DNA from: Candidatus Wirthbacteria bacterium
Lineage (GTDB): Bacteria; Patescibacteriota; CG2-30-54-11
Direction: 5' to 3'
NCBI GenBank assembly: GCA_903889905.1
Contig: CAISZI010000008.1
Coordinates: forward strand, 40,766-104,765
Length of the DNA: 64,000 bases
Of the stretch, positions 33,160 through 56,725 are shown piece after piece. Under the pieces are notes generated by a model, which ran no database searches, was not told where the DNA came from, and worked only from the letters and a program-made list of their open reading frames with translations. Numbering within the stretch: position 1 is the stretch's first letter; the number at the start of each line of letters is the position of its first letter. Both the position numbers and the translations under genes were made by a program.

Positions 33160-33245
33160 ACTTCTCCCCCCCCCAGCGGGGGAGGATTAAAGGAGAGGGG
33201 ATTCCCTCTCTCTAGCTCTCCCCCAGCGGGGGAGAGGAAATGAGG
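33160..33245. repeat. two REP-like hairpins downstream of the pilus operon
   Basis: CTCCCCCCC-CAGC-GGGGGAG and CTCTCCCCCAGCGGGGGAGAG (9-bp stem, AGC loop). Confidence 0.7.
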
Positions 33246-34156: not shown

Positions 34157-34251
34157 TCAATCCGTCCAATTTGCGCAGGACCGCTCCAAGCAAATTGGAC
34201 ACCGATTCGTTCTTTTGCCTACTTTTCTTACTCAAAGAAAAGTAGATTCTC
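34157..34251 (+). repeat. conserved ~95-nt tRNA leader element with two hairpins (copy 1, upstream of tRNA-Leu-CAG)
   Basis: AATCCGTCCAATTTGCGCAGGACCGCTCCAAGCAAATTGGACACCGATTCGTTCTTTTGCCTACTTTTCTTACTCAAAGAAAAGTAGATTCT. Confidence 0.75.
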
Positions 34252-34338
34252 GCCGAAGTGGTGAAATTGGTAGACACGCAACGTTCAGGGCGTTGTGAGC
34301 TCACGCTCATGAGAGTTCAACTCTCTCCTTCGGCACCA
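34252..34338 (+). tRNA. tRNA-Leu (anticodon CAG), long variable arm, CCA encoded
   Basis: GCCGAAGTGGTGAAATTGGTAGACACGCAACGTTCAGGGCGTTG...CTTCGGCACCA. Anticodon loop TTCAGGG. Type II variable arm. Confidence 0.85.
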
Positions 34339-34436
34339 ACCTACGCTCGGGATAGCCGTCTAAGAAGCGGCGAGCTACGGTTGGCTGCGCCAGGCTACAA
34401 AAGGTACGCAGCCATTTATGAACATTAAAACTCCCC

Positions 34437-34532
34437 ATCAATCCGTCCAATTTGTGCAGGACCGCTCCAAGCAAATTGGACACCGATTCGTTTTTTGCCT
34501 ACTTTTTTACTCAAAAAAAGTAGAAAGTCTTT
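34437..34532 (+). repeat. tRNA leader element copy 2 (upstream of tRNA-Leu-GAG)
   Basis: Same element. Hairpin 2 reads CTACTTTTTTACTCAAAAAAAGTAG, a compensated change relative to copy 1. Confidence 0.75.
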
Positions 34533-34618
34533 GCCGAGGTGGTGAAATGGTAGACACGCAAGCTTGAGGGGCTTGTGGGAGCAATCCTGTGGAGGTTCAA
34601 GTCCTCTCCTCGGCACCA
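34533..34618 (+). tRNA. tRNA-Leu (anticodon GAG), CCA encoded
   Basis: GCCGAGGTGGTGAAATGGTAGACACGCAAGCTTGAGGGGCTTG...CCTCGGCACCA. Anticodon loop TTGAGGG. Confidence 0.85.
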
Positions 34619-34789
34619 ACCTTCGCTCGCAGCGAGCTGCGGTTGGCAGGCCATCACCCAATTGATGGCTTCGCCAGCTTAATGAACTTATAGCGTACAA
34701 CTGTTAAACCAACACGCAGTTGAGCCAAAGAGGGCCTGCCCTCCGAAGCTTGTCAGGTTACGAGTAACCTGACTTCCCGAAGCGTAGGA

Positions 34790-34866
34790 GGGCGATTAGC
34801 TCAGTTGGTTAGAGCGTCTGCCTTACACGCAGAATGTCGCAGGTTCGAGTCCTGCATCGCCCACCA
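34790..34866 (+). tRNA. tRNA-Val (anticodon TAC), CCA encoded
   Basis: GGGCGATTAGCTCAGTTGGTTAGAGCGTCTGCCTTACACGCAGAA...GGTTCGAGTCCTGCATCGCCCACCA. Anticodon loop CTTACAC. Confidence 0.85.
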
Positions 34867-35010
34867 GCCTACGCTGTAGGCATCCCCATCATAATCATAC
34901 GTAGTGGGTTACCCATATTTCCGCTTTCAGCTTCGGCTGGCAGGCCATCTCTCCCCTCTTGGTTATGTGTTAGCTAACACATAACGGGATTGAACCTTAA
35001 AATCCTAATG

Positions 35011-35105
35011 TAATCCGTTCGTTTTGCGCAGGGCCGTCCCAAGCAAAACGAACACCGCTTCGTTCTTTTGCCAACTTTTCTTACTCAAAGAAAAGTTGAA
35101 TCTCC
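35011..35105 (+). repeat. tRNA leader element copy 3 (upstream of tRNA-Phe)
   Basis: GTTCGTTTTGCGCAGGGCCGTCCCAAGCAAAACGAAC and CAACTTTTCTTACTCAAAGAAAAGTTG. Both stems carry compensatory changes relative to copy 1. Confidence 0.75.
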
Positions 35106-35181
35106 GCCGAGATAGCTCAGCCGGTAGAGCGAAGGACTGAAAATCCTTGCGTCCCCAGTTCGATCCTGGGTCTCGGCACCA
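35106..35181 (+). tRNA. tRNA-Phe (anticodon GAA), CCA encoded
   Basis: GCCGAGATAGCTCAGCCGGTAGAGCGAAGGACTGAAAATCCTTG...GGTCTCGGCACCA. Anticodon loop CTGAAAA. Confidence 0.85.
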
Positions 35182-35305
35182 CTTCGAAAATCCCCCTTGG
35201 CAACCAATTGCCATTTCGTTATACTTCTCTCCGTTGGTTTTGTGAAAATGGCACCACAAACGTTAGTTCCCAGGCGGGCCTGCCCGCCGTAGCTTCTGAG
35301 CGTAG

Positions 35306-35381
<76 letters not shown>

Positions 35382-37624: not shown

Positions 37625-38209
37625 TTAAAAAGTTTTAATCATTTCCAGATAATTGTTACCCTTATCCCCGGCTGGCAACTGGTCCAGTACCGGCGTTTTA
37701 TCACACAGGGTACCGTTGCGTTCGCCTACGTAATCGGGATACGACGACCATTTGTAGCTATTCAAGTATTCAAATTTGTCATGCGCGGTCAGAAACGCCG
37801 ACAGATTGGTTGGTTGCAGGTGGATATATACCGTCATGCCCAGGATTTCCTTGGGTGTGAGCTCTTTGGCCCGGAAAGGCCCCTCAAACAGTCGGCCACG
37901 CCGCTGCGCCTTACGGTTGAAGTACATGGAGTAGCCCGTCCCAAGCTGATGCATAAAATCCGTCAATCCCCCGTCATTTTCCTGACGCAGAAGCAAGTGA
38001 AATTCGCTATCGAGCAGAACATAAGCAATGAAACTGACGAGTGGCTGCGATACGGCATCCAGGTAATCTTTTTCCTTGGTATTGCGAAAGCGTCGCATGT
38101 ATTCCAAAAACCGTTTACGGTCATCGTCGTCCAAAAAAAGTGGCCGGTTTTCCACGCCACGGTTCATGATGTAGTAGTATTGGTGATTGCTGAATTCAGT
38201 ACGACGCAT
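37625..38209 (-). CDS. IS200/RAYT-family Y1 (HUH) transposase-like protein (REP-associated tyrosine transposase-like) with a degenerate HUH motif
   Basis: ...YYYIMNRGVENRPLFLDDDDRKRFLEYM..., ...IAYVLLDSEFHLLL... (where canonical members have NHvHLLv), ...YFNRKAQRRGRLFEGPFRAKEL..., ...VYIHLQP...YKWSSYPDY. Collinear with PF01797/COG1943 Y1 transposases, with a catalytic Tyr before IHLQP. Confidence 0.8.
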   Translation of the reverse strand: MRRTEFSNHQYYYIMNRGVENRPLFLDDDDRKRFLEYMRRFRNTKEKDYLDAVSQPLVSFIAYVLLDSEFHLLLRQENDGGLTDFMHQLGTGYSMYFNRKAQRRGRLFEGPFRAKELTPKEILGMTVYIHLQPTNLSAFLTAHDKFEYLNSYKWSSYPDYVGERNGTLCDKTPVLDQLPAGDKGNNYLEMIKTF

Positions 38210-38284
38210 AGCGGTATAGTAAAATAATAGGATGTTCCAGTCCTATTATTATACTTGAAATCGTTGATTCGCTCAAGGCTTAGC

Positions 38285-41200
38285 CTAATTGAAGTTGACT
38301 GCGCTGCCATTATTATAAAGCATCTGCACCTGGGCGGCGGTGAGGCCATAATTATAGAATCTCACATCATCTATCTGGCCATCGATAACACGCCAAAAGA
38401 CGGCATCGGGATTCCGGCCAATCATGAAATTACGGGCAACACTGACATTACCGGCTGCAGCGCCACTGCCTTCCAATTTTCCATTGACATAAATATATCC
38501 TACACCAGCGCTGCGCACACCAACGATATGGTACCAGGTACCGGTGGCGATGACCGTCGTGCTGCAAATGGTTGAGCTGGTGACAGAGAAATCCATACGG
38601 TTGGCGACACCGCAGATTGACCCTCCCGTATCATTTTCAAAATGCGTCCCGTCCCAGGTGCCAGAATAGACTGAATTGGAGACAGGCGGATAGTAATCGG
38701 CGAGTCCAGCGTATTTGACCCAGTAGGCAATGCTGTAATCCCCCGTCCCGAAATTGAACTGCGAGGCTGTGCCCAAATCCACATAATCATTAACGGCCGG
38801 ATTAAATGCCAGACTCGCATTCCACTTCCCAGCCGCCCCATTCCCCCAGGCCGTACCCGCCGTGCTACATGTACCCGCCGCGGTCACTCCCATCCAGGTA
38901 CCATTGAACTGATTGGAGCTCACATCGTGAATCGTCGTGCCCTGACATTCGTCCAGGTTGTAGTAGGAGATTGGCTTGCCACGATTGTAGTCCCAGGCAA
39001 CCTGGGCGGCGGAGCGGGCATAATTATAAACCTTGACATCATCGATGGCACCATTAAATGGCCAGACGGTTGCCCCTTCGCGACCGATTTCAAAAGCGCC
39101 CGAACTGGTGGTCGGATTGGAATGGGTTCCCTGGGAGGCATAACCCAGCAAAACACCATTTTTATAAAACTTGACCGTAGTGCCACTGCGCACAGCCACC
39201 ACATGCTGCCAGACATTGGTGACGACACTTCCGGATGCGCTAAAGGAGTTTTGCAGCGCGCCTGCCTGATTGGTCGTCACATTCAACTCATCCCCAAGCA
39301 ACGAAAAATTGTAGCCGTCGGTGTTGTACGTTCCGCGAGCCATAATCCGTGTCGCTGCGGGTAATGCAGTCGGATTGATCCAAGCCTCGAGCGTAAAATC
39401 CGAACTGGTAAAATTCAGTGCAGATGAGGGCGAGTTGTCATTGGCCGTGATGTAATCTCCACTCGCACTGCCGTTACTCCCCGTAAAACTACCCGCTTTG
39501 CCAATTTTGCCGCTCTGCCAATGGCTGTCTGATCCAGTCCAGGTCCCGATGATCCCATTGCCACTGATATCATTGGCCGTGCTGCCGGTTCCTTCGTTTA
39601 GATTCCAATACGCCACCGGCGCGCTGCAGCTGGTACTATCCCCCGGCACGCAATACTCGCGGGCGGCGGAATTATCAGGAACACCGGCCGCAGTGGTACC
39701 GGTGGTGCCAAGCGTAAGGGCTGAACCATGGTTGTAGTCAAGCAGAACCTCGTCGGGCGACAGGGCGTAGTTATAGATCTTGATCTCATCCAAAAGTCCA
39801 TTGAGATAACGACTGGCTAATCCTGAATTGTCATTGCCAAAATAGAGCTTGTCGTCAGCGGCTGAAACCGCACCCTGTGACCAGGTAGCGGAACCTTGGC
39901 TTACCCCATTCAGATACAAGGTCGCCACCTGATTTTGATAAACGCCAACAAGCTGGTACCAGGTGCCCGTTGTCAGGGTCGCCGTGGCATAAGGAGAATT
40001 ACACGCGACGTTGGTTTTACAAATGCTGAAGTAAAATTTGTTCTGTGCTTGATCAATACCCAATCCATAACCAAACTTATTGGCAGTCGAATATTGACTG
40101 ACAATCATGGGCGAAGACAAACTGACTGAGCTCACATTTACCCACGTCGAAATCGTGAAATCATTGGTGGAATTAAACTTATAAATGCTGTTAGTCGCAT
40201 CAACATAGCCGTTTGCGTTAGCCGGGAATGACAGCGCTTTGTTGTATTTGCCAGCTGTGCTCCATGTCACCGAAGAGCCCAGCGTGCCGCTGACATTACT
40301 TGGACTGGCATCGTGTGCAGTAGTGCCATAACCTTCGTCAAATTTCCACCAACCAATGGTCGATCCCACCGGACTTCCGCCCGCCGGATGGCCACCATTC
40401 ATGTCTTCAACGACCTGCTTCCCGGTACGGGCATAGTTATAAATCTTGACCTCGTCGATCTGACCATTGGTGCGATAGTTGACGCCGCTGTTGGCACCGA
40501 TGTTGAGAGTGGAATCCGACTGTTTCATCGTGCCCGTCGTCGTATCGGTCCAGGTGGTGCTGTCTACACCATCAACATACATTTTGAACTGGGTACCACT
40601 ACGGACAACCTCAACATGATGCCAGGCGTTGATACTGATCGTGGGGCCATCAGCCTCGTACTTGGTATTGCTGGTATTCCACCAGTGAAAATATAATTTG
40701 TCGTCAGCGGCCAGCGAGGTCAGGTCAAAGGACGCATAAGGCGAGGCCACGTTACGCTGTACATAAATAATTTGGTCTTCCCCTTTGGCCGACGACAGTT
40801 GACTCAGTTTGACCCAGATCGAGATGGACAGGTCATTGGGTGGCATCAGCGTAGCGCTGTTACTGACACTCAAAAAGTTATCCGAACCATTGAAATTGAG
40901 TGAAGTACCAAATTTCCCCGGTTTCCACTGGCTACCAAGCGTACCATTCAAGGTGCCGCTAAAGCCATTGCCACTCGAGTCATTGGCAGTGACACCCGTG
41001 TGGTCATCGAATTTCCAATACCCCACTGGCCCCGGCGCCCAGTTGTAAAGTTGGGAAACCTCACTGACGGACAAGGCGCGATTGTATAGCCGGACTTCAT
41101 CAATCAATCCATTATAAAAATTGGTGGGCGTGGTGGTTGAATCCTGAGCACCAACCTGGAAGCGTCCGAGGGTGGCAGATATGCTGGAGGGAATTGTGCC

Positions 41201-44200: not shown

Positions 44201-46108
44201 GGCAAACGGAACTGTCACGTTGATGTTGACGTTATTAGCGCCCGAAAAGCTAGCAATGCGCCTGGTTTCATACTGGCCGACGGTGGAATAATTGGATGAG
44301 GTTCCCTGCAGATTGATGACCAGAATTTCATCCCCAACCGCGAGTCCTAGCGTATCCGGATTGTTGGTTGAAACCGTGACATAAGTCGCACCAACCGAAG
44401 TCAGCACTGTGGAGCTGAAATTCACCGCATCAGCTTTGGCGCGACTGACGCAGGTATTGGAAGATGCGGCGGTTACATTCACCGTACCGCTGGGGACGCT
44501 GCAGTTGCCATCGGCGCCAGTACCATAGTCAGCACTGTCTTTGGCGGTGACGGAGTCATAAACTTTTTGACCACTTCCCTCATCAAATTTCCAGTAAGCA
44601 GCTGGCCCGGTTGACTGCTCCTCGGTCCCGCTCAGCGTCACTGTCGGCATCGTACTGACTGTCTTGTGCACAAACACCCAATCCAACGTCGTGGTAAAAG
44701 TCAGCGTATTGCTAAATTCCAGCTCCAAACTACCCGTCGGCACATTGGTTGTGGGATTAGAAATTTGGGAACCATTTTGATAAAACAATGTACCCGATGC
44801 ACTATAACGATTGATTCGGTAATTCTGCATGGCCGTACGGTCAGTCACCGTCAGGGCAGCACTCGTCGTTGCTGAACTGGCTGCCTTGGAACTCGAATAG
44901 ACATTGGTCGTTGTGGCACTATTGGTATAAAGTATGGCGTTGTTCGTATCGGTCACGTCACGATAGCCCGCAGCCGCCAGTTTATTGGTACCATCTCCGG
45001 CCGCGGTCTGCATGCGATAATCCATGATTGAATAACCATAACTGAGATTGGAACGAATTTTGGCACCAGTGCTGATTGAAGCCAATCCGCTGCCTGCTGT
45101 CACTGAGCCCGTTACAGTCCAATTTCCAGTATCAATACTACTGCCACTGAAATCATCAAAAAACTGAAAAACACTGGTTCCACTGGCAATGTTAACCACC
45201 TGCGAATTGCCATAGTAAACATAAATTGCCGTGCCTGTTGTGACAACAGAGGGGACCTTGGTCCAGATGGCAGTAGTCTGACTGTCGCACTGATTGGTTC
45301 CTGTCTCGATCCAGTGCGGGAGCAATTTCCCATTGATGTCGGTAACCCGTATATCGGCGCAATCTGAAAGCAGCTTGCCCTGGTAGATCAATCCGGAAGC
45401 ATTATTGCTGCGAGTATCCAGCGTAATCGACACCTGGAAATCCGTCTGGTTGGACGAAATACTGGTGAGGTCAACACGTTTGCGATAAAGCCAGTTTTCG
45501 TTCCACCAAGCCGCGGCTGCGGATTTGCGGTTGAGGAAGAAGACGATGCCCACGATCACGACCAGAGAAGCAGCCAGGCCAAACCAGAAACGGCGGGAAC
45601 GGAGAGAGAGTAACCCCTCCTTGCCTCCCCTTACTCTAAGGGGAGGAATAAGAAAATGCCAAAAGCGACTTAAACCTCCTTCCCTTAGAGTAAGGGAAGG
45701 TTGGGATGGGTTACTCTGTCTTATCTGCTCAGTGCTGGAGCCTGCGACGTGCTTAGAGTAAGAGGGGGCAGGGGGAGTTACTCCCCATTCTTTTTTCGGT
45801 TTCTCCCGCGCTGCCGCCACCATCCCTTCCGCCCGCTGCTCAACCACCGGCGGCAAATCCATTTTTTTGACAAATATTTTGGGCTTTTTGATCACAAATA
45901 CCGGCATCCCAGCCTTGGGGCGGAGGTCGATGGGGTGGGCATGGTTGGTTGAAGGTTGTGGTTTTTTCGTTGTTTCAGCTTGATCTAACCCACCTTTATC
46001 CTCCCTTACTCTAAGGGAGGACTTCTGAAAGTCTCCCCTTAAAGTAAGGGGAGATTTAGAGGGGTTATGATTCTCCCCGAATTCTAGTTTTTTCCTGGCA
46101 TTTGACAT
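38285..46108 (-). CDS. giant membrane-anchored surface protein (2607 aa). Layout: N-terminal cytoplasmic tail with REP-derived repeats, TM anchor, DUF2341-like domain, Gly-rich region, about 10 LamG-like (concanavalin A-like) domains.
   Basis: TM helix FWFGLAASLVVIVGIVFFL. DUF2341-like block WWNENWLYRKRVDL...DIRVTD...IYVYYGN. Gly-rich low-complexity stretch about 330 aa long. Repeated LamG-like units of the form VGYWKxDExSG...DSSGNGN.GT...GKFG.A.SF.G...Y, each ending ...IDEV+IYNYA. Confidence 0.9.
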   Translation of the reverse strand: MSNARKKLEFGENHNPSKSPLTLRGDFQKSSLRVREDKGGLDQAETTKKPQPSTNHAHPIDLRPKAGMPVFVIKKPKIFVKKMDLPPVVEQRAEGMVAAAREKPKKEWGVTPPAPSYSKHVAGSSTEQIRQSNPSQPSLTLREGGLSRFWHFLIPPLRVRGGKEGLLSLRSRRFWFGLAASLVVIVGIVFFLNRKSAAAAWWNENWLYRKRVDLTSISSNQTDFQVSITLDTRSNNASGLIYQGKLLSDCADIRVTDINGKLLPHWIETGTNQCDSQTTAIWTKVPSVVTTGTAIYVYYGNSQVVNIASGTSVFQFFDDFSGSSIDTGNWTVTGSVTAGSGLASISTGAKIRSNLSYGYSIMDYRMQTAAGDGTNKLAAAGYRDVTDTNNAILYTNSATTTNVYSSSKAASSATTSAALTVTDRTAMQNYRINRYSASGTLFYQNGSQISNPTTNVPTGSLELEFSNTLTFTTTLDWVFVHKTVSTMPTVTLSGTEEQSTGPAAYWKFDEGSGQKVYDSVTAKDSADYGTGADGNCSVPSGTVNVTAASSNTCVSRAKADAVNFSSTVLTSVGATYVTVSTNNPDTLGLAVGDEILVINLQGTSSNYSTVGQYETRRIASFSGANNVNINVTVPFANAYDGTTQQIMVQRVPNYGTVTVSGGATLTVDAFNGTKNGVLFFRATGTVTASGTIDMNAKGYTATYPVVMGVPGGSAGGGSGSSTFPGGGGGGGGQGGSYGAVGSMPAKGGGGGGGGAYAQMNNTSTGAIGGSGDGVVGGNSSTTGSAGANSGGGGGSGAVTLTGGAGGTSSCLQMPCTAPPNAGNGGAISTSGNGNGGYYADIGTPGPAGVGSDNFKNVSTYGSSDLQKLYLGSNGATGGTGANGNGLASPGTGGAGGGGGTGGGILTIFAPIVTTSGAIRSNGGNGSNGTAGTAGAGSTWLIGAGGGGGGSGGGGAGGSVLIKTGLATLGSSLVTASGGTAGTGAAGGAGGHGDDGCGTGTAGPAGAANGGGGGGGYAAGNGGCNGWGGGGGGGGATGGAGSVGRVTVYSSGVPSGAASPAASTYLMGNNGYLGGSDTSLPVDPTWAAEDMCVSGKCLKFDGSTQYASVPSTAAINLTGDATWEGWFKFITVTGITQYLIQKDNSNGYSMFLNSSGQLSLYIHPTSINGNTVLSASQWYHLAVVKSGTTVTFYVNGKADGTGTVPSSIPTNSLSLGLGVKMASMTGYFGGFMDEVKIYNYGRTAIQVKQDFNAHGGNADDGTGVSIGSNAQNSMALSNGLVGYWKMDESSGNANDSSGNGNTLTSVNTPAFSSGKFSNAGSFTAASSQYMYQSQSLTLQPDAASGLDTYLYGVVAPGSNQGTAINIEVGRGATTSLFRTLIKFDVSSIPSNATISSSTLTLYNEGGGGTTENIGVYRGLTQWWEGSQNVAPPGAADGSTWNYRNNNTGNYVQWGSNTAGGLSGTDFAVSPTSSTSATYVTGFLNWDVKADVAAWVAGSATNYGLWLIGNEGSTSTYKNFTSSDGATSGNRPQLVVNYPSTVSLSSNLTVSAWIKPSSVTAATQFDIAGKWDGANTDYQLAQYATDIRFYVGSSSNYVTTSSAGLVTGNWYHVVGTYNATAQTVTIFINGVLQATTTTGTIPSSISATLGRFQVGAQDSTTTPTNFYNGLIDEVRLYNRALSVSEVSQLYNWAPGPVGYWKFDDHTGVTANDSSGNGFSGTLNGTLGSQWKPGKFGTSLNFNGSDNFLSVSNSATLMPPNDLSISIWVKLSQLSSAKGEDQIIYVQRNVASPYASFDLTSLAADDKLYFHWWNTSNTKYEADGPTISINAWHHVEVVRSGTQFKMYVDGVDSTTWTDTTTGTMKQSDSTLNIGANSGVNYRTNGQIDEVKIYNYARTGKQVVEDMNGGHPAGGSPVGSTIGWWKFDEGYGTTAHDASPSNVSGTLGSSVTWSTAGKYNKALSFPANANGYVDATNSIYKFNSTNDFTISTWVNVSSVSLSSPMIVSQYSTANKFGYGLGIDQAQNKFYFSICKTNVACNSPYATATLTTGTWYQLVGVYQNQVATLYLNGVSQGSATWSQGAVSAADDKLYFGNDNSGLASRYLNGLLDEIKIYNYALSPDEVLLDYNHGSALTLGTTGTTAAGVPDNSAAREYCVPGDSTSCSAPVAYWNLNEGTGSTANDISGNGIIGTWTGSDSHWQSGKIGKAGSFTGSNGSASGDYITANDNSPSSALNFTSSDFTLEAWINPTALPAATRIMARGTYNTDGYNFSLLGDELNVTTNQAGALQNSFSASGSVVTNVWQHVVAVRSGTTVKFYKNGVLLGYASQGTHSNPTTSSGAFEIGREGATVWPFNGAIDDVKVYNYARSAAQVAWDYNRGKPISYYNLDECQGTTIHDVSSNQFNGTWMGVTAAGTCSTAGTAWGNGAAGKWNASLAFNPAVNDYVDLGTASQFNFGTGDYSIAYWVKYAGLADYYPPVSNSVYSGTWDGTHFENDTGGSICGVANRMDFSVTSSTICSTTVIATGTWYHIVGVRSAGVGYIYVNGKLEGSGAAAGNVSVARNFMIGRNPDAVFWRVIDGQIDDVRFYNYGLTAAQVQMLYNNGSAVNFN

Positions 46109-46300
46109 CGGTTTTGGGCTTGGTTTGGGTGGAATGGTGGTTATCGAATTAGTATAGGGGAAATTTGTGGAAATAAGATGGATAGGGTGTCCGGATCTAA
46201 CCCCTCCTAACCTCCCCTTGCTCCAAGGGGAGGAATCGAACCCGCACTTTCACTTTCTGTGCTCCTCCCCTTAAGCTAAGGGGAGGCTGGGAAGGGTTAT
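45590..46300. repeat. cluster of G/C-rich REP-like palindromic hairpins (CCTCCCC-loop-GGGGAGG family) in the 5' end of giant gene 1 and the gene-1/gene-2 spacer
   Basis: CCTCCCCTTACTCTAAGGGGAGG (45612-45634), CTCCCTTACTCTAAGGGAGG, CTCCCCTTAAAGTAAGGGGAG, CCTCCCCTTGCTCCAAGGGGAGG, CTCCCCTTAAGCTAAGGGGAGG. Confidence 0.8.
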
Positions 46301-46306
46301 GCATCC

Positions 46307-49300
46307 CTATTTCAGGTTTACCACGGCGTTTTGATTATACAATATTTGGACCTGGGTGGGAGTGAGGGAATAATTATAAAGTCGGACATCGTCGATCTGG
46401 CCGGTGAAGGGGAAATCGGTGCCACCAATATAGGTGGTCGCCGCTGAGGATGGCAACGTGGCCGGAATGCTCGTCGTGGTATAAACTTTACGAATAGCAT
46501 CAACATAAATCGCAATAGACGTGGATGGAGTATAAATCGCAACCAAATGATGCCAGCCACCATCGGCAACCGTCACGGCATTGTCATACACTTGCGTTGA
46601 CCCAAAGAACACGGCCGGCACTTTGCCATTCACACCTGCGCCCAAACCAATCGACATCATATAGGTGCCTGACCCCTTGGCAATTACCCGTCCTGCATTG
46701 GCCGACGTTTTGACCCAGGTAGACATGGTCATCGGGCCGGTGAAATCCAGTCCGCTGGGGTTGCCCAAGGTTACGACATCATCCGTCCCATCAAAGTTCA
46801 AACTACCATTGTACTTGCCACTGCGCCCACTGTACCAGGCCGTGGAAGCATTGGTCGCGCACTTCCCTACCGACGTCTGACTGCCACCGGCCCCACTCCA
46901 GGTGCCGCTCAGGTTATTGCCGCTCGAATCATGCAGAGTTGCGTTTTGGCATTCATCAAACTTCCACCACGCCACGGGCAGGCCACGGTTGTAATCCCAG
47001 GCGATCTGGGCAGGAGTGCGGGCGTAATTGTAGAGGCGTAAATCGTCGATCTTGCCATGAAACATGTTTGCAGCAGCGACATCAGTGCCAATGCGCGGCA
47101 CAAAATTCGGCGTTGTATTGTCAAAGGCAACGCTCGCAGTACTTTGGGAATAATTCACGCCATTTAGATAAATATGATGGACATCCGCAACTGAGTCATA
47201 GACAACGGCCACGTGGTACCAGGTATTGGCTGACAGCGCACGCGAATCCGATGCCCAGGTAACATATCCACCGGCATCCGGGGCGCGTCCGCCGATGCCA
47301 AGCATGTTGGATGCATTGACCATAAACTGGAATCGATTGGATCCATCGACATTGATCGGTTCCGTGAAAATCGGATTGATAACACCCAATTGTGTGAGAT
47401 AGATCCATCCTTCTATTGTAACTTGTGTCAATCCTTTGATTGAATTCCCATTATTGGTCGTCAGATAATTATTTGTCCCATTAAAATTTCCCGCTCCCCC
47501 TATCTTCCCCGGTTTCCACTGACTTCCCAATGATCCCTGCCATGCTCCGTTAAAGGCATTCCCACTGGTATCCGTCGCCGTACTTCCTGTCCCCTCATCA
47601 AACTTCCACTCTGCCACCGGCGGATTACACGAACTGGCATCTCCCGGCACGCAGTAAAGCGATGCATCCGACCGGCTGGCATTGCCCGACGAGTCGACGG
47701 TATTGGCGCCCACCACTGTGGCTGAACCGTGATTGAAGTCGAGCAGCACTTCGTCGGGGGTGATGGCGTAGGTATAGACTTTGACTTCATCGATGGGGCC
47801 ACTGAAGTAGTGTGTACTATTATCATTACCAATACGGAGAGCATCGGCATTAGTGATATTGGGCCAGGTGCCGTGCGTGGTGAGGGTGGTGGCGACTTCT
47901 TTGCCATCGACAAACAGCCGCACTTTGTCCGTACTTTGGTCAGCAACCATGGCGTAATAATGCCAGTTGCCATCGGCCACATCGGCCGTGCTCACCGCGA
48001 TCCGATCGACGGTACCGTTTGCCTGAGTGAACGACCCAACCAGAAACTGCCCCGCAGCCGAACAGTCGCTGTTGCCACAAATCATCAGGCTGTATTGCGG
48101 GTAATTGGCGCTGTTCTGGCGCTTGGTGACAATCGGCCCAGTCTGATCACTGTTTGCGGGTTTGGCCCAGGCGCTCACGGTCCAGCTCGCACCTGCGCCG
48201 GGCTGCAGGCTGGCGGCATCGGGAACATTGACATAGGCGCTGCTGCCATTAAATGTGAGCGCTTTGCCGAATTGCCCAGCCGTCGTCCAGGTGGCGCTAA
48301 CAATGCTACCGTCGTGGCCTTTGGCTTCGGAGTCATGCGCCGTGCTGCCCGTGCCTTCATCAAATTTCCAGTAGGCGGCCATCATCTTGGTACCCACGGC
48401 AGGATGATCGGCAGCCTGGGTGGATTCGATTTGTTTTTGGGTCAAGGCATAGTTGTAGATGCGGATGTCATCCAAGGCACCAACAAAAGCATGACTATTC
48501 AAGCCAATATCCCAAGTACCAATTTGGAAATTCTCAGCAGTATTAAATACACTTGTAGGTAAACCTGATTGGGTGGAATCTAAAATACCATTGACATAAA
48601 AATCAACTGTCCCAGAGCTAGCATGATAAACCGCCGAGACATAAGTCCAAGCACCGGCTACAATAGATGAATTAGATGCTACTTGAACTGCATTCGTACC
48701 ATCATTACTGATTGTGAATAACAGCTTGCCCGCGCCATTTCCAATACCAAAACGATAACCACGGTTTCCGACAGTGTTATAAAATTTAGAAACCATGCCG
48801 CGACTATAAGTCGCATCAATATTGGCCACTTTTTCCCACAGGCTGATCGTGAAGTCTGACCTCATTTGCAGCGGCGTGGTGTTTCCCTCATCCACCCAGG
48901 TATTCGTACCAGAGAAATTTAATGCATTGCTGATCTTACCAGCCGGTAGCCAAGTTGCCCCGGTGATGGTTCCGGTCGATCCTTTGCCTGATGAATCGGC
49001 AGTGCTAGTTCCGCTCCCCTCATCCATCTTCCACCAACCCACCGGCCCCGGCGCCCAGGTGTAGAGCTGCTGGACTTCCAGGGCGGTGAGGGCGCGGTTG
49101 TAGATGCGGACGTCGTCTTGCGAGCCATTCCACCAGTTCTCCCACATGGTGTTAGCAAGTTTGAAATGTGGCAACGTAATATTACCTGTCAATGTTGTTG
49201 GGGCCGACGCATCAAGCTTGCCATCGATATAAATCGACATGATTTTGAGTCGTTGCACCGAAACCACCACATGATGCCACGCTCCATCTCGAACACCCGT

Positions 49301-52300: not shown

Positions 52301-55144
52301 GGTCGGGGCATTGCCCAGGGGCAAGGTCGTGCCACTCGCAATCGTCATGCCGATCTGAACACTGATGGAACCAAAGACGCGATTAATCCCCACCGGTGCA
52401 TTGAAGGTCACACTGGAGGCGTCAATCGTAGAATTCCCCTGATAAGTACCGTTTAGATTGAGATTGACATTGGCAGCCGGAAAACCGGTATTGGGATTGT
52501 TGATAAGAAAACTGCTGGCGATATTGAATGTCGGTCCAGCGGCAGCGGTAAAAGTCTTGTTGGCATTATTGGTAAAAGCGCCGGTACCGTTGAAATAAGT
52601 ACTCGACGAATAAGTAGCCAGCGACGCCAAAGTCACGGTGCCGTTGTTAACAAAATCCCCATTCATGTTCCAGGTGGTGGCGGAACCGGAAATCGTCCCG
52701 TTGTTGGTCAACACGGCACCGACATTGCTCGTGAACGTACCTGTGCCAACCGTGATCGTACCGTTGTTGGTCAGGAAATACTGGCACCAACTCGAGGTAC
52801 AATAAGTATTCACCAGCGTGAGGGTCGCAGTATTGCCGAGCGGCAAAGTTGTCCCGTTGGCCACGGTCAACACCGGCGAATCGGCAAAACTACTGATCGA
52901 ACGACTGATCGTCACCAGATTAAAAGTGATTCCCGCGGCATCCACCGAACTACTGCCGACGACTGTCCCGTCAAACGCCACCGTACCGCCATTGGCGCTA
53001 AAGGTGGGTGCACCGGATTTGGTAAAACTGGCGGTGATATGCATGGTGCCGGAGGTATTGGTAAAAGTCCCGCTCGACAGGGTAAAACTGCCGGCATTGC
53101 CGCCCGACCCGATGTTGATCGCGCCACTGCCCCCCGCAAAGGTGCCCGCGCCAAAGACAAAGTTCGACGTCCCCACCGTCACCTGGTAACTGCCTGATTG
53201 GGTAAAAGTGCCACTGTAACTGCTGCCAAAACTCAGTCCCGCCACGTTGACATCCGCGCCCAGTGTCACTGATCCATTATGCGTGCTGGTAAAAACTGCC
53301 GTGTCACCGGATTGCGGATAGGAACCGCTGCAGCTGCCCCAGTTGCCGGCCGTGGCAAAAGTTCCGGTCGTGTCATTGAGCCAGGCGCAGGCCGCGTCCG
53401 AGGCGATCTGCCACGACCGCGCTTCGATAAAAAAAAGCGAACCGGTCGCCGAACCGGTCAAAAATTTGAGCGGCCCCACCAGATAAAATTCTGGCGATAC
53501 TTCGGGCGCCTTGTACTGGTAACCAATCGTTAGTACCGTGTTCGCATGCATGTCGACGGTCCAGTCGATGTGTTGCACATCACCGACTCTGCGCACCGTA
53601 GCGTAAGCTGTTGTCGATGCCAAAGGCGTTATCACAAAGTTCGCTGGCACGGTTTCTTCGATAACTCCCTGAAACGACTGATTGGCCGTGATGCGCAACG
53701 TGACCGGCAGCGGATTAAAGGGGAACAAACGTGTGGCAGCGATGCGTTCAACGGTAAGTGGTACACTGTCTTGGACGACGATGGTATCTGTAATCGTATA
53801 GGGCCCTTTGTCAGTCCGCGCCAGCAACGTGAGTTGATAATCGCCGCTATCGCCCAGTTTGTAGGTCGCCTCAAAGTCTGGCCTGGTATTGATACCATAA
53901 ACAAGGCACTCGGGGTTACGCACAATTTTGCCATTGGCCGTCGACAGTTCATCCACCTGACCATTGTGGCTAATACGCAAAAACAAGGCTGCATTGCAAT
54001 TCATATCCCCACGCTCATCGAGCACGGCAAAGGACAATTTGGCCATCTGGTTGGGTGTGTAAATGGACTGGTTGGCATTCATGGCCAGCACACCCCAGGT
54101 AAAATCCTGGGTAATTTGTTTGTGGTTACCGTTTTGGATGACGTCAACGGCCAGCCGATATTTGCCGGGCTTAAACGTATTCCCCTGTTTGGGCACAACG
54201 GCAAAGGAATAGGTATGATCCACGAGCGGCGACACCTGCACGCCAACGATGGCTGACTCAGTCCTGGCTTGATTCAAATCCGCATTGTCGCGCACGTAAT
54301 AGACTTTGGCATCCACCGTGGTCTGGCTGTCGGTGATTGTCGATGATACCGGTGCTACATCGGCGGCATAAGCTGTGGCAATCAGCGACGAAGTGGCCTT
54401 GGCCGGCAATTTGGCACTGGCGTCATAGGCCATGACAAACACCACCGCTTCACTGGCGCTGAAGTTAGTCTTGGGTTTGAGCAGCGTCTGCTGATCGTTT
54501 GCCACGCTAAACAGCGCGGCTGAGGAAACCGCAGTATTCCTGGATGAGGCAAAAGTCTGCGGTTTGGAGACAAAATAACTCGCCCCCAACCCCGCCAGCA
54601 GAACAATAAAAATCGCCCCCAGCGCGACCCGACGAGCATGTACAAAACGGCCAAAAACGGATTTAAGAGCGGGCAGGTGGATGGGAGTGGTGAGGAGGGG
54701 AATCACCCCCCTCATGGCCTCCCCCCGCTGCTGCAAGGGGAGGGATAAAATCTGCCCCGCCCCTGCCTTAGCAGGCTTTAGTCCCCCTTGCGGGGGGGAG
54801 GGCAGGGAGGGTGTAGTTTTGACCGCCACTGTCTCAACGGGCTTCATTCCCCCTTGCGGAAAGGAAGGTTGGGAAGGGGTAGTCTTATTAAACGTCACCA
54901 ATCTTCCCCTCCCCCCTTGGGGGAGGGCTGGGGAAAGGGGTCTTGCAGAAATCCCCTCTCTCTGTCTCTCCCCCGGGGGGGGAGAGGAAAGTTTGTTCCT
55001 CAGATCAACTGTCCTCGTCACTGGCATACTTCGCCCAATCCCATAACCTGTTTGCGGTCGCGGGGTATCGGTTGCATCGTCAAATTGTAGTTTTTGTCTG
55101 ATCTTGGCCATGGGTTCCTGTTTGATCTGACGGTATTGTAGCAC
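46307..55144 (-). CDS. giant membrane-anchored surface protein (2945 aa). Layout: N-terminal tail, TM anchor, beta-sandwich-like domains, beta-helix-like tandem repeats (autotransporter-associated type), about 9 LamG-like domains.
   Basis: TM helix VALGAIFIVLLAGLGASYFV. Three near-identical ~160-aa tandem repeats (NGTITVGTGTFTSNV...GTISGSATTW..GDFVNNGTVTLASL...). The C-terminal half is LamG-like repeats ending ...QIDDVRLYNYSLT.... A plausible internal start is the ATG at 54715. Confidence 0.9.
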   Translation of the reverse strand: MLQYRQIKQEPMAKIRQKLQFDDATDTPRPQTGYGIGRSMPVTRTVDLRNKLSSPPPGERQREGISARPLSPALPQGGRGRLVTFNKTTPSQPSFPQGGMKPVETVAVKTTPSLPSPPQGGLKPAKAGAGQILSLPLQQRGEAMRGVIPLLTTPIHLPALKSVFGRFVHARRVALGAIFIVLLAGLGASYFVSKPQTFASSRNTAVSSAALFSVANDQQTLLKPKTNFSASEAVVFVMAYDASAKLPAKATSSLIATAYAADVAPVSSTITDSQTTVDAKVYYVRDNADLNQARTESAIVGVQVSPLVDHTYSFAVVPKQGNTFKPGKYRLAVDVIQNGNHKQITQDFTWGVLAMNANQSIYTPNQMAKLSFAVLDERGDMNCNAALFLRISHNGQVDELSTANGKIVRNPECLVYGINTRPDFEATYKLGDSGDYQLTLLARTDKGPYTITDTIVVQDSVPLTVERIAATRLFPFNPLPVTLRITANQSFQGVIEETVPANFVITPLASTTAYATVRRVGDVQHIDWTVDMHANTVLTIGYQYKAPEVSPEFYLVGPLKFLTGSATGSLFFIEARSWQIASDAACAWLNDTTGTFATAGNWGSCSGSYPQSGDTAVFTSTHNGSVTLGADVNVAGLSFGSSYSGTFTQSGSYQVTVGTSNFVFGAGTFAGGSGAINIGSGGNAGSFTLSSGTFTNTSGTMHITASFTKSGAPTFSANGGTVAFDGTVVGSSSVDAAGITFNLVTISRSISSFADSPVLTVANGTTLPLGNTATLTLVNTYCTSSWCQYFLTNNGTITVGTGTFTSNVGAVLTNNGTISGSATTWNMNGDFVNNGTVTLASLATYSSSTYFNGTGAFTNNANKTFTAAAGPTFNIASSFLINNPNTGFPAANVNLNLNGTYQGNSTIDASSVTFNAPVGINRVFGSISVQIGMTIASGTTLPLGNAPTITVVNNGCMGVCQYDLTNNGTITVGTGTFTSNVSGFFTNAGTISGSATAWSHSGDFVNNGTVTLASLATFSSSAYFHGQGSFTNNASKTFTAAAGVTFNVADSFIITSPNTGFPTSNVTLNLNGSSSYNSTIDAPTVTFNTPVSINRSMSSFGTNALMTVASGTTLPLGNTPTLTLVNTYCANSNCSYGLTNNGTITVGTGTLTANVGGIFTNTGTLSGNVTTWAMNGDYVNNGTTTLSSLTTYTAAAYGYSFGHLTNNSGKTLTTAANPTFTIFGNLTINGASTFTTPISLILNGSGGTQTLDAANVTYNAWSKSAASALTLTQGFTTTDFTYSAGTISNPVGGMILNVAGNFSESSANNLGGANLTINFNGTGAQGFTKTNGTFASIFNVNKAGGTLTLNNALTVSGQTCTLQQGTLDINGQAFVCGSTFTVQATGTLRLVGSETPTAPTLSSGSTVSYKGDGDSAADNYNIQNWSYSNLSIDMTDASDTVVPGALGTITVAKDFSINSGGFTSPGTFNVAGNWTNNGTFNHNGGTVHLTGTDQTIVGSTTFNSLSKIATSPQTLVFPGNATKTQVILGTTTLKGNSTVNRLSLHSSAANTQWRFDPQSTRDFNYLNVKYSNNINVNVIDISGLDLTDEGHNTNWGFPMPGPVVGYWKLDEGSGQVVHDSAFNANSGTLGANSSVAADDPTWVTEDMCMSGKCLKFTAASSQYVNINSAITGVQTLSFWVRPTVWPAPLGALDGTAGTATLTTNGSGVIQVGAGFNSPTVYVNGKVSSQLALYQWQYVVVTTGTGMDSPNIVLGRVGAAYLNGFMDDVKVYNSAISATIVNLNYNNRSGASTNGGFALSRLANNYTALVDGLVGYWKMDDNVSGDNQTLVDASGAGNNGTTHYGANTTGMNCTGAGKYGGGCVFDGADDHADVTTYANISPGASNFTLAAWIKTSTAADIIDASNNSGGSFTSGYGLIIASGWACSGTDKLYFNFANGTNRETGLCSVTGVRDGAWHHVVVSVQRLKIMSIYIDGKLDASAPTTLTGNITLPHFKLANTMWENWWNGSQDDVRIYNRALTALEVQQLYTWAPGPVGWWKMDEGSGTSTADSSGKGSTGTITGATWLPAGKISNALNFSGTNTWVDEGNTTPLQMRSDFTISLWEKVANIDATYSRGMVSKFYNTVGNRGYRFGIGNGAGKLLFTISNDGTNAVQVASNSSIVAGAWTYVSAVYHASSGTVDFYVNGILDSTQSGLPTSVFNTAENFQIGTWDIGLNSHAFVGALDDIRIYNYALTQKQIESTQAADHPAVGTKMMAAYWKFDEGTGSTAHDSEAKGHDGSIVSATWTTAGQFGKALTFNGSSAYVNVPDAASLQPGAGASWTVSAWAKPANSDQTGPIVTKRQNSANYPQYSLMICGNSDCSAAGQFLVGSFTQANGTVDRIAVSTADVADGNWHYYAMVADQSTDKVRLFVDGKEVATTLTTHGTWPNITNADALRIGNDNSTHYFSGPIDEVKVYTYAITPDEVLLDFNHGSATVVGANTVDSSGNASRSDASLYCVPGDASSCNPPVAEWKFDEGTGSTATDTSGNAFNGAWQGSLGSQWKPGKIGGAGNFNGTNNYLTTNNGNSIKGLTQVTIEGWIYLTQLGVINPIFTEPINVDGSNRFQFMVNASNMLGIGGRAPDAGGYVTWASDSRALSANTWYHVAVVYDSVADVHHIYLNGVNYSQSTASVAFDNTTPNFVPRIGTDVAAANMFHGKIDDLRLYNYARTPAQIAWDYNRGLPVAWWKFDECQNATLHDSSGNNLSGTWSGAGGSQTSVGKCATNASTAWYSGRSGKYNGSLNFDGTDDVVTLGNPSGLDFTGPMTMSTWVKTSANAGRVIAKGSGTYMMSIGLGAGVNGKVPAVFFGSTQVYDNAVTVADGGWHHLVAIYTPSTSIAIYVDAIRKVYTTTSIPATLPSSAATTYIGGTDFPFTGQIDDVRLYNYSLTPTQVQILYNQNAVVNLK
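51330..52850 (-). repeat. three tandem ~500-bp intragenic repeats (about 80% identity) encoding the beta-helix-like repeat units of giant gene 2
   Basis: DNA and protein repeat units match, for example ...LTNNGTITVGTGTFTSNV...GTISGSATTW.NGDFVNNGTVTLASLAT.SSS.YF.G.G.FTNNA.KTFTAAAG.TFN... three times. Confidence 0.8.
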
Positions 55145-55320
55145 CTCAAAGCAGTGGCAAGCTACAGGAATGCAACTACCCCCTACCTAGCCTCCCCCCG
55201 CTGCTGCAGGGGGAGGGATATGATCTTCACCGCCCCTGTCTTAGCGGGGGAGGATGTAGGAGGGGGTAGGTTTGTCCGCCCCTGACCATTCTGATGGACG
55301 GGGGAGGGCAGCGAGGGGGT
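54700..55320. repeat. array of at least 8 G/C-rich REP-like hairpins, in the 5' end of giant gene 2 and the spacer toward the ATPase gene
   Basis: CCTCCCCCCGCTGCTGCAAGGGGAGG, CCCCCTTGCGGGGGGGAGG, CCCCCTTGCGGAAAGG, CCTCCCCCCTTGGGGGAGG, TCTCCCCCGGGGGGGGAGAGG, CCTCCCCCCGCTGCTGCAGGGGGAGG. Confidence 0.8.
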
Positions 55321-55323
55321 AAT

Positions 55324-56451
55324 TCAGACCACAAACCCCAACCAATTCTCCTTGCTCACCACCTCCCAACTTGCATCCGGATAGGTCCGGCGCCACAGTT
55401 TGGGTTCTTTGGATTTTTTGATGCCCCACTTGAATTCATAACCATGTAATTTGCCATCGTAGTCTTCGACGTAGTCCACTTCCTGCTGGGTGTAGGTGCG
55501 CCAGAAGTAGGTATTAGCATGGTGCAGTAAATAATGATTGCGCTTGAGGCGCTCGGTGAACAGGTAATTTTCCCACAACTGGCCGACATCATTACGCTGG
55601 TCAAGCGGATTGAAATTATTGATCAACGCGTTACGGACACCATTGTCAAAAAAATAAAAACGGGAACTTTTACTAATTTCCTTGCGCAGGTTGCGGCTAA
55701 AACCAGTAACACGCCGGATGACAAACACTTTTTCCAGAAGATCCAGATAACGTTCAATCGTGCCCAGGTTCAATGTTAGCGAGGATGCCAACTCCTTGAG
55801 CGAAACCTCATGGCCAATCTGAAACGCAACCAGGCGCAGTAGATCCAGCAATTTGTCGGCGTGGCGAATATCCTGGAGAGCAAGCAAATCCCGAAACAGG
55901 TAATTGTCGACGACCGAACCCAGAATTCCCCGCTTGTCGCCCATATCCACCGCCGTCACCACGTCAGGAAAACCACCAAAAATAAGCCGCTCGGGGAGAC
56001 GCTCTGTTGTCTGCATGAAATTTTCGGTCTTGCCAATCTCCATTTGCGCCAATGGATACAGATAATACATCCACTTGCGGCCCACCAGTGGTTCACCCAC
56101 CTGATTGGCTAGTTCAAAAGAGGATGAGCCAGTCGCCATGACGCGGATACCGGGAAAGCTATCCACGATAATTTTGAGATTCAGCCCTATCTCATCAATG
56201 CGTTGCGCCTCATCAATCAAAAGCACATCGGCGTTACCAATATTATTTTTCAATATTTCAAAACTACGCGAGCTGAGCCAGCGTGAATTCACATCATCGC
56301 CATTGACCCGAAGGACTTTGCCCTCAATCTGCGACTCGATATGTTTCATCAGCGTCGTTTTGCCCGTACGCCGTGGACCATAGAGAACAACAACTTTGTT
56401 GGGCGTCAGATGTGACAAAATAGTAGACGTGAGGGCTCGCTCAATGTACAT
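55324..56451 (-). CDS. AAA+ superfamily ATPase (AAA_14 + DUF4143 family, COG1373)
   Basis: Walker A LYGPRRTGKTT, Walker B ...VLLIDEAQ..., and a C-terminal DUF4143-like region with DNA-binding characteristics. Confidence 0.85.
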   Translation of the reverse strand: MYIERALTSTILSHLTPNKVVVLYGPRRTGKTTLMKHIESQIEGKVLRVNGDDVNSRWLSSRSFEILKNNIGNADVLLIDEAQRIDEIGLNLKIIVDSFPGIRVMATGSSSFELANQVGEPLVGRKWMYYLYPLAQMEIGKTENFMQTTERLPERLIFGGFPDVVTAVDMGDKRGILGSVVDNYLFRDLLALQDIRHADKLLDLLRLVAFQIGHEVSLKELASSLTLNLGTIERYLDLLEKVFVIRRVTGFSRNLRKEISKSSRFYFFDNGVRNALINNFNPLDQRNDVGQLWENYLFTERLKRNHYLLHHANTYFWRTYTQQEVDYVEDYDGKLHGYEFKWGIKKSKEPKLWRRTYPDASWEVVSKENWLGFVV

Positions 56452-56624: not shown

Positions 56625-56725
56625 TATGGGAAGGGGAGTAACACCCCCCGCCCCCTCTTACTCTAAGAGGGGGTCTGATCCGATCCCCCCGCTTAAGGTA
56701 AGCGGGGGCTAGGGGGCGTTATGAA
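56625..56725. repeat. two REP-like hairpins between giant gene 3 and the ATPase gene
   Basis: CCCCCTCTTACTCTAAGAGGGGG and CCCCCCGCTTAAGGTAAGCGGGGG. Confidence 0.75.

Follow-up and report, generated by a model that had tools for sequence, protein, structure and literature searches.

RAYTs, the tyrosine transposases associated with REPs (repetitive extragenic palindromes), are the textbook example of a domesticated bacterial transposase. Within the wider TnpA-Y1 family, subclass 2.1 is characterised by the motifs NH[FY]H, FQ, Y[IV]HLNP and SS (Table 1 of Quentin et al., 2018; PMC6006769) and corresponds to the group 1 RAYTs (Bertels et al., 2017; PMC5581495) and, largely, to the TIRYTs, the genes of which are flanked by terminal inverted repeats (Di Nocera et al., 2013; PMC3733652). 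Subclass 2.1 has been reported as lacking REP association, the signature Y-x-x-x-Q belongs to IS200 (class 1) and Y---NP to class 2 (PMC6006769), and the HUH motif and the Tyr were conserved in all RAYTs and TIRYTs aligned by Di Nocera et al. (PMC3733652). Here we describe a RAYT-like gene from a 64,000-nucleotide stretch of DNA (hereafter the window) from a Candidatus Wirthbacteria bacterium (GenBank assembly GCA_903889905.1, contig CAISZI010000008.1, positions 40,766 to 104,765), together with the G/C-rich hairpins in its vicinity. We put a probability of roughly 55% on its product being a selectively maintained, probably non-catalytic DNA-binding derivative of a subclass 2.1 RAYT/TIRYT, a reading that draws on sequence comparison and a predicted fold. 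Coordinates are collected in Table 1.

An original prediction, made from the letters of the window alone, had proposed a RAYT-like Y1 transposase gene with a degenerate HUH motif next to a REP-rich locus. All the motifs that it quoted are present in the 194-residue product (YYYIMNRG, SEFHLLL, YFNRK..RRGRLFEGPF, VYIHLQP and YKWSSYPDY), and the gene does start 75 nt past the stop codon of the first of three giant genes, which encodes LamG repeats; only 15 nt separate its own stop codon from the next gene downstream. The asserted collinearity with PF01797 stood up through homologues and fold and failed as a direct match: hmmscan against Pfam gave no PF01797 hit, and the NCBIfam model REP_Tyr_transpos (NF047646), although collinear with the protein (residues 7–133 against model positions 6–131 of 146), scored 19.1 bits against a cutoff of 80. 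A sequence search of the PDB with the protein returned nothing meaningful and a HEPN match (E ~0.8) was rejected as spurious. Most of the 323 homologues of the protein carry PF01797, several being labelled transposase or RayT by their sources, and phmmer links it at E-values of 1e-24 to 1e-31 to more than 100 PF01797-bearing proteins. An AlphaFold model built on 27 homologues (pLDDT 91.5) has the RRM-like beta-alpha-beta-beta-alpha-beta core plus catalytic helix of the solved TnpA structures, and its top Foldseek match in the PDB is 4ER8_A, which shows the Escherichia coli TnpA-REP in complex with a REP hairpin (E 5e-6, TM-scores 0.56/0.64), followed by the TnpA proteins of IS608, ISDra2 and IS200, with a probability of 1.00 for 4ER8, 2A6M/2A6O, 2XMA, 2VJV and 2F4F. 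Because of these PF01797-bearing homologues and this fold, we accept the Y1/HUH kinship despite the weak direct profiles, and the first suggestion, a RAYT-branch homologue of the Y1/HUH transposases, is supported.

The wider family to which it belongs (~190–240 aa) shows all four subclass 2.1 motifs, with the SS motif following the catalytic helix, and by these motifs appears to be a large family, rich in members of the candidate phyla radiation (CPR), that matches TnpA-Y1 subclass 2.1, Bertels group 1 and the ‘TIRYT’ class. At the signature sites the window protein reads SEFH, FE, YIHLQP and WSS, and on its sequence affinity is a derived member of subclass 2.1 by descent, with altered signatures. 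The family shares with subclass 2.1 and the TIRYTs its motifs (including WSSY after the catalytic helix), its length, a low copy number, the absence of GTAG-type REP association and genes that are often bracketed by inverted or palindromic repeats. Unlike subclass 2.1, however, the window protein has no detectable C-terminal DnaA_C or helix-turn-helix domain (no Bac_DnaA_C, HTH_23 or HTH_28 found in Pfam at E ≤ 1); unlike the GGGGWSAS terminal repeats of TIRYTs, CPR members have long perfect palindromes of the ...AGGN-loop-NCCT... type; and whereas TIRYT hosts are Proteobacteria, this host is a Wirthbacteria-like sibling of the CPR. With E. coli TnpA-REP (4ER8; subclass 2.2) the protein shares the core, a Tyr on the following helix and Y-x-x-x-(N/Q)-P, but only 11% sequence identity; the E. 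coli enzyme has DHLH and sits in a REPtron with GTAG-headed REPs, whereas REPs are absent from the flanks of the window gene and its product reads E-F-H. The HUH/Y1 fold and the Y-x-x-x-Q spacing, a class 1 signature, recall the TnpA of IS200/IS605 elements (IS608, ISDra2), but the window gene is single-copy, lacks a tnpB partner and insertion-sequence ends, and encodes a protein with sequence affinity to class 2 (Y---NP).

The departure from all RAYTs and TIRYTs aligned previously (PMC3733652) lies in the active site, where the window protein and its clade lack the full catalytic set. We tabulated 269 family members from two sources: a word-indexed search for which the window protein was the query, and an exhaustive HMMER search based on a profile of its clade, the latter returning 18,160 representatives at E ≤ 1e-3. 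On alignment with 268 homologues, E69-F70-H71 falls exactly in the H-u-H column and Y128 and Q132 fall in the Y-x-x-x-N column (Y128-I-H-L-Q132-P133 against YIHLNP in the family), the family consensus LMPNHFHLLLRQ having become LLDSEFHLLLRQ. Histidines occur in the window protein only at positions 9, 71, 87, 130 and 143, which leaves it no H-x-H elsewhere. The proposed loss of the first HUH histidine is borne out, and degradation of the active site extends across the clade. The codon of E69 (GAA) is two base changes away from any His codon and is therefore not a single-base sequencing error. Across the family, H-x-H and Tyr are kept together in 259 of 269 members, His at position 13 in 263 of 267 and Asn at Tyr +4 in 260.

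The exceptions are concentrated in the clade of the window protein, and the lesion differs lineage by lineage. The window lineage combines E-F-H with an intact Tyr, Gln at +4 and Tyr at position 13; the lineage of P0002, P0121 and P0122 has G-F-Y, an intact Tyr, Cys at +4 and Phe at position 13; the P0003 lineage retains H-F-H and His at position 13 but has Arg for the Tyr and Cys at +4; and the P0004 lineage, with H-F-H, Asn at +4 and His at position 13, has Phe for the Tyr. This clade is monophyletic in a neighbour-joining tree and is set apart by a gap in HMMER scores with the clade profile, from ~370 bits to ≤192 bits for everything else. Across the 26 columns with ≥90% conservation in 261 outgroup sequences, 10 of 20 clade cells are altered in the five active-site columns, against 13 of 84 in the others (Fisher p = 0.002); with H13 left out because its role is not known, the counts are 8/16 and 15/88 (p = 0.007). 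Several of the altered non-catalytic cells adjoin the HUH motif (M66, N68), and the window protein has lost both of the family-invariant residues H13 and N68. All four lineages nevertheless retain, at 47–51% identity, a full-length open reading frame (ORF), and they agree throughout at 59 columns, among which are N16, G18, F25, D30, R75, Q76, N98, G105, H130, P133 and W154-S155-S156. Full-length frames, invariant columns and the bias of change towards catalytic columns together fit a protein that has dropped catalysis yet remains under selection, and do not fit a random pseudogene. After WSS, the tail of the window protein is 39 aa, against a median of 53 in its relatives. A Q109E change in the ‘FQ’ motif was considered as a mark of the clade and rejected, being present in 41 of 261 outgroup sequences. 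Outside the clade in the neighbour-joining tree, the 156-aa protein P0253 from the representative search has Y13, S-L-H, Lys in place of the Tyr and ends, like the clade, in C-terminal ...YQWSSYPDYLGKRQGTL; this protein could be fragmentary, or else represent another loss that arose independently.

The gene also has, by prediction, a promoter of its own. The promoter listed in Table 1 has an equivalent in the same place at L001, the locus of another clade lineage (TTGATT-17-TACAAT), and the 15-mer common to the two spans the stop codon of the giant gene and extends into the first four bases of the −35 element (TTGA), although the L001 protein is only 47% identical to that of the window. Since the two loci share both this 15-mer and −35/−10 pairs at 17-nt spacing, the Y1-like gene is predicted to have its own conserved promoter. 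A palindrome ending 8 nt before the ATG overlaps the −10 box; it is the sole copy within the window and fits the ...TAGGA-CTG-TCCTA... theme of the palindromes that bracket intact family members. There is no downstream partner at the window gene, the 15 nt to the next gene leaving no room for one, and the family palindrome is not recognisable in the flanks of L001–L003.

The palindromes of the relatives were characterised in 80 metagenomic loci, with the other genes of those loci as controls. A hairpin of at least 10 bp lies within 80 nt upstream of 44 of 77 family genes (57%) and of 74 of 439 controls (17%); downstream, the figures are 45/77 and 142/462. Frequently the same long palindrome stands at both ends of the gene, with a genome-specific sequence and a common theme, ...(T/C)AGG(N)-3/4-nt loop-(N)CCT(A/G)... 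When bracketing is judged strictly, it holds for 12 of 64 genes, with extra copies nearby in only three of those 12, and by sequence and position these palindromes are of the gene-end TIRtron type, not dispersed REPs. Bracketed intact CPR members (among loci L128–L206, for example L133, L134, L137, L149, L153, L160, L165, L175, L185 and L196) are REPtron- or TIRtron-like, in contrast to the published absence of REP-like flanks in subclass 2.1. In unadjusted counts, C/G-run hairpins were enriched fourfold around Y1 genes; this was rejected as evidence, since such flanks are intergenic by construction and the hairpins are of a different palindrome type.

In 4/4 lineages of the degenerate clade, a giant gene stands just upstream of the Y1-like gene on the same strand; its product has LamG repeats in the window and L001 and contains Peptidase_S74 in L002 and L003. 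At L003, which belongs to the P0002 lineage, the gene downstream of the Y1-like gene shares homology with two giant genes of the window, 1 and 3, at their N-termini; the Y1-like gene therefore lies inside a giant-gene array in both genomes. Synteny on the downstream side, with a gene for a 261-aa lipoprotein-like protein, was considered and rejected, as it is not conserved. In the P0002 lineage (L003 3800–4400; also L004 and L005), a PF05635 gene (23S_rRNA_IVP / Avd-like four-helix bundle), flanked by runs of GTTAACGAGTT/GTTAACGGGTT repeats, stands between the giant gene and the Y1-like gene. This Avd-like neighbour raised the idea of a diversity-generating retroelement, which was rejected because the neighbouring genes scanned have no reverse-transcriptase domain.

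The clade has stopped conserving the catalytic set—the beta-1 His, both HUH His, the nucleophilic Tyr and the +4 Asn—and retains the fold for hairpin binding, an unbroken frame and a promoter of its own. We propose that the window protein most likely no longer cuts and joins DNA and has probably been kept as a DNA-binding protein with specificity for sequence or structure. Its putative target, the single family-type palindrome over its own promoter, makes autoregulation plausible; alternatively, it could possibly act within the arrays of giant surface-protein genes in which the clade gene is always found. We infer both the loss of catalysis in the window protein itself and its DNA binding, with any regulatory role; clade-wide loss of catalysis is the most economical reading because the sister lineages lack either the Tyr or both His. 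If the proposal is true, a clade that keeps fold, frame and promoter without the chemistry would mark a further step of domestication, to a pseudo-enzyme, and would offer a handle on the role of the non-catalytic surfaces in RAYT-type proteins.

Two other accounts start from the same gene and its upstream palindrome. The gene might be a non-functional relic, that is, a TIRtron- or REPtron-type element, stripped of its catalytic residues and of the palindrome at one end, that is drifting towards a pseudogene; the clade-wide catalytic losses, the survival of one of two bracketing palindromes in the window and of none recognisable at L001–L003, and the short tail after WSS all agree with this. 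We nonetheless consider it unlikely, because neutral decay over such a distance would be expected to break the frame, whereas full-length ORFs persist in at least four lineages at 47–51% identity, most non-catalytic invariant positions are spared (13/84 cells changed, against 10/20 catalytic ones), the promoter is strong (10/12) and shares its 15-nt upstream block with L001, and synteny is conserved. At the other extreme, the protein could be a still-active enzyme of TIRYT type, with E69 in place of His, that acts only on its own palindrome and on any partner copies. The palindrome does fit the family in theme and position (~10–30 nt from the start codon) and Y128, H71 and Q132 are in place, but there is no second copy in 64 kb, the 15 nt before the next gene are few, H13 and N68 are gone as well, and the sister lineages are, on their sequences, clearly catalytically dead; activity of this kind seems to us distinctly improbable.

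Also to be weighed is the possibility that the gene is an active RAYT, with an E-x-H metal site, that mobilises the neighbouring G/C-rich doublets, which brings in the pairing suggested by the original prediction. The G/C palindromes of the giant-gene locus are real: CCTCCCC-N(0–30)-GGGGAGG has six exact matches in the window and none in 100 shuffles. They do not ‘saturate’ the locus, however, being restricted to a handful of spacers between genes, most of which lie upstream of giant genes, with no hairpins in the bodies of the giant genes and one cluster outside the locus altogether. Family 1 comprises eight units in four inverted doublets, with the architecture TAACCCCTCC-N3-[CCYCCCC-TTA-NNN-TAA-GGGGRGG]-spacer-[hairpin]-N3-GGRRGGGTTA, and family 2 comprises ~10 hairpins, with ends CTAC.../...GTAG on the distal side of a G-run. 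Judged by sequence, these short, imperfect, multi-copy, extragenic elements are REPIN-like inverted doublets: like REPs, REPINs and bacterial interspersed mosaic elements (BIMEs), they are clustered hairpins of 23 nt (~35 nt with the foot) with a conserved foot. In classical REPs the foot of the stem bears a conserved 5′ GT[AG]G (or CGTC) head, whereas the family-1 feet are TAACCCCTCC/GGAGGGGTTA (TAAC/GTTA). An integron attC reading of these feet was rejected by inspection, since the right end GTTAYG does not fit GTTRRRY, and a search of the window against Rfam gave only sub-threshold miRNA-hairpin noise.

The pattern CCTCCCCTTNNNNNAAGGGGAGG, with the feet left unspecified, was scanned over one genome per species and occurs in at least 120 stretches (loci L007–L126). 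The matches listed come from Desulfuromonadales, other ‘delta’ lineages, Nitrospirae, Ignavibacteria, Bacteroidota, Clostridia and Gammaproteobacteria, as well as from Uhr-, Gottesman-, Doudna- and Saccharibacteria and one archaeon, Methanolobus; a further 23 viral contigs (L207–L229) also carry the hairpin. Among the matches listed, 101 of 140 hits (72%) have the foot AACCCCNCC or GGNGGGGTT within 20 nt, against ~1 of 140 control windows, and many form doublets with a CCCCCTCTTA...TAAGAGGGGG partner. The cross-phylum element, (T)AACCCCTCC-N3-CCTCCCCTT...AAGGGGAGG-N3-GGAGGGGTTA, is near-identical in sequence and often arranged as inverted doublets; hairpin G of the window (56651–56673) is identical to one at L003, in another genome. 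No Y1-family protein is encoded in any of the 120 hairpin loci among the matches listed (~780 kb), a test with little power where a single-copy RAYT serves many REPs, for which reason the flanks of the 80 family loci were added. Rfam has no family for the hairpin, finding only tRNAs in 18 diverse hairpin loci, and full-text searches for the hairpin and foot sequences returned nothing relevant. At L039 (2714–4117; Desulfuromonadaceae metagenome-assembled genome contig JAQUHA010000012.1), eight footed hairpins lie within 1.4 kb, the first four ~220 nt apart, an arrangement that, by analogy with BIME arrays, suggests a tandemly amplified composite unit.

Given the spread over phyla and viral contigs and the absence of Y1 genes from the listed loci, the CCTCCCC element appears to be tied neither to one lineage nor to the Y1-like gene. 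The suggested REP/RAYT pairing is thus not supported: the nearest unit is 7.4 kb from the gene, with none within 7 kb, no RAYT flanked by CCTCCCC units that would make a REPtron was found in the window or the listed loci, and intact relatives are bracketed by other palindromes. The expectation that the hairpin flanks would resemble those of the gene itself likewise failed, the window gene having a single palindrome of an unrelated type upstream and no CCTCCCC flank, and the ‘expanded REP family in an unusual lineage’ is not supported, since the same hairpin and feet recur across many bacterial phyla and viral contigs, unlike classical REP families, which are lineage-specific and co-evolve with their RAYT. 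The accompanying view of REP/RAYT pairs as chiefly proteobacterial holds only in part, as three subclasses with REP association, 2.4, 2.7 and 2.8, come from cyanobacteria or Bacteroidetes (PMC6006769). An active doublet mobiliser could still appeal to the retained Y128, H71 and Q132 with a metal-ligating Glu, to the REPIN architecture of inverted pairs with conserved feet, to the four of five hairpin clusters that lie within 19 kb of the gene, to a doublet of the same type 34 nt downstream of the gene in the P0002 lineage and to TnpA-REP as the best structural match. Against this, the Tyr is missing in P0003 and P0004, that adjacent doublet belongs to the lineage that lacks both HUH His, the family-1 feet have no GT[AG]G head, and subclass 2.1 is reported without REPs (PMC6006769); with the pairing evidence above, we regard such mobilisation as very unlikely. 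The CCTCCCC elements appear instead to be a separate, cross-phylum class of palindrome that accumulates where long spacers lie upstream of giant genes, and not cognate repeats of the Y1-like gene; a tempting mis-pairing is in this way corrected.

Several points weigh against our preferred reading of a maintained, non-catalytic DNA-binding protein. The window protein retains H71, Y128 and a Gln at +4, the last giving the Y-x-x-x-Q of IS200. Glutamate is a competent divalent-metal ligand, and some viral Reps use H-u-Q. With Glu as a metal ligand, residual activity is possible on the sequence, and the window protein cannot be declared dead. In the P0002 lineage, the CCTCCCC-type doublet at L003 does lie 34 nt past the stop codon of the Y1-like gene; it occupies the long spacer that lies upstream of the next giant gene, the position of the window clusters, and the hairpins therefore track the upstream spacers of giant genes, not the Y1-like gene. 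An ORF of at least 800 aa also lies within 2 kb upstream in 11 of 38 intact relatives, these large neighbours being mixed, mostly surface-type proteins with one DnaE; the giant-gene neighbourhood is thus in part a tendency of the whole family and may do no more than mark variable genome regions. The clade is sampled in only four to five metagenomic lineages, the sequences of which are too divergent for dN/dS.

A bolder proposal joins the two threads, and we hold it to be doubtful as a whole: that the window clade is an undescribed branch of dead RAYT/TIRYT ‘pseudo-transposases’, and that the TAACCCCTCC-footed doublets are an undescribed REPIN-like superfamily. The former would have been domesticated as hairpin- or palindrome-binding regulators in the giant surface-protein arrays of Wirthbacteria/CPR-type bacteria; the latter would span many phyla and phages with near-identical sequence and no known mobilising enzyme. 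Such constancy of sequence would imply a widely shared recognition machinery, for which mimicry of Shine–Dalgarno/anti-Shine–Dalgarno pairing is one speculative idea. The footed palindrome, described neither in Rfam nor in the searchable REP literature, may merit a study of its own.

Table 1. Positions of the Y1-like gene, its regulatory sequences, the giant genes and the CCTCCCC-type hairpins in the window.
Feature	Position	Strand	Remarks
Y1/HUH transposase-like gene	37625..38209	minus	ATG-started ORF, 194 aa
Palindrome AGTATAATAATAGGA-CTGGAACA-TCCTATTATTTTACT, 15-nt arms	38218..38255	minus	Inverted-repeat scan
Sigma-70-like promoter TTGAGC-17 nt-TATAAT, 10/12 matches	38248..38276	minus	Promoter scan
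15-mer TAGGCTAAGCCTTGA	38273..38287	minus	Identical in window and L001 (upstream sequences compared)
Giant gene 1, LamG-repeat (Laminin_G_3) surface protein, 2607 aa	38285..46108	minus	Directly upstream of Y1-like gene
Giant gene 2, LamG-repeat	46307-55144	minus	In tandem with giant gene 1
Giant gene 3, LamG-repeat	56729-63994	minus	In tandem with giant gene 1
Family-1 doublet A-B: TAACCCCTCC-N3-[CCTCCCCTTA ctc TAAGGGGAGG]...[CCTTCCCTTA gag TAAGGGAAGG]-N3-GGATGGGTTA	45613..45715	.	
Family-1 doublet C-D	45988..46067	.	39-nt arms, 77% complementary
Family-1 doublet E-F	46198..46299	.	Ends 7 nt before giant gene 2 stop codon
Family-1 doublet G-H	56640..56721	.	Ends 7 nt before giant gene 3 stop codon
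Family-2 cluster, ~7 C-run/G-run hairpins, feet CTACCCCCT.../...AGGGGGTAG	54691..55310	.	Upstream of probable giant gene 2 start, ATG 54713
Three family-2 hairpins	33162..33236	.	Between NAGPA-like gene and yebC, outside giant-gene locus

The three giant genes have a common C-terminal motif, ...GQIDDVR.YNY.LT..QVQ.L..., and a gene for an AAA_14/DUF4143 ATPase (55324–56451) lies between the second and the third; for giant gene 2, the ATG given in Table 1, and not GTG 55144, is probably the true start. The N-terminal cytoplasmic tail encoded by giant gene 1 holds doublet A-B in frame (...NPSQPSLTLREGGLSRFWHFLIPPLRVRGGKEGLL...), and the doublet appears to be translated, there being no in-frame ATG, GTG or TTG between 45820 and the transmembrane helix. 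The FtsH encoded in the window is 68% identical to that of Candidatus Wirthbacteria CG2_30_54_11 and ~57% identical to those of Chloroflexota, and the type IV pilus genes and giant LamG proteins fit that placement; the GC content is ~51%. On these sequences the host appears to be a Wirthbacteria-like sibling lineage of the CPR, outside the classical CPR phyla. Two near-identical perfect hairpins just upstream of tRNA genes, at 34219–34245 (CTACTTTTCTT/AAGAAAAGTAG) and 35072–35098 (CAACTTTTCTT/AAGAAAAGTTG), belong to the tRNA cluster at 34252–35381.

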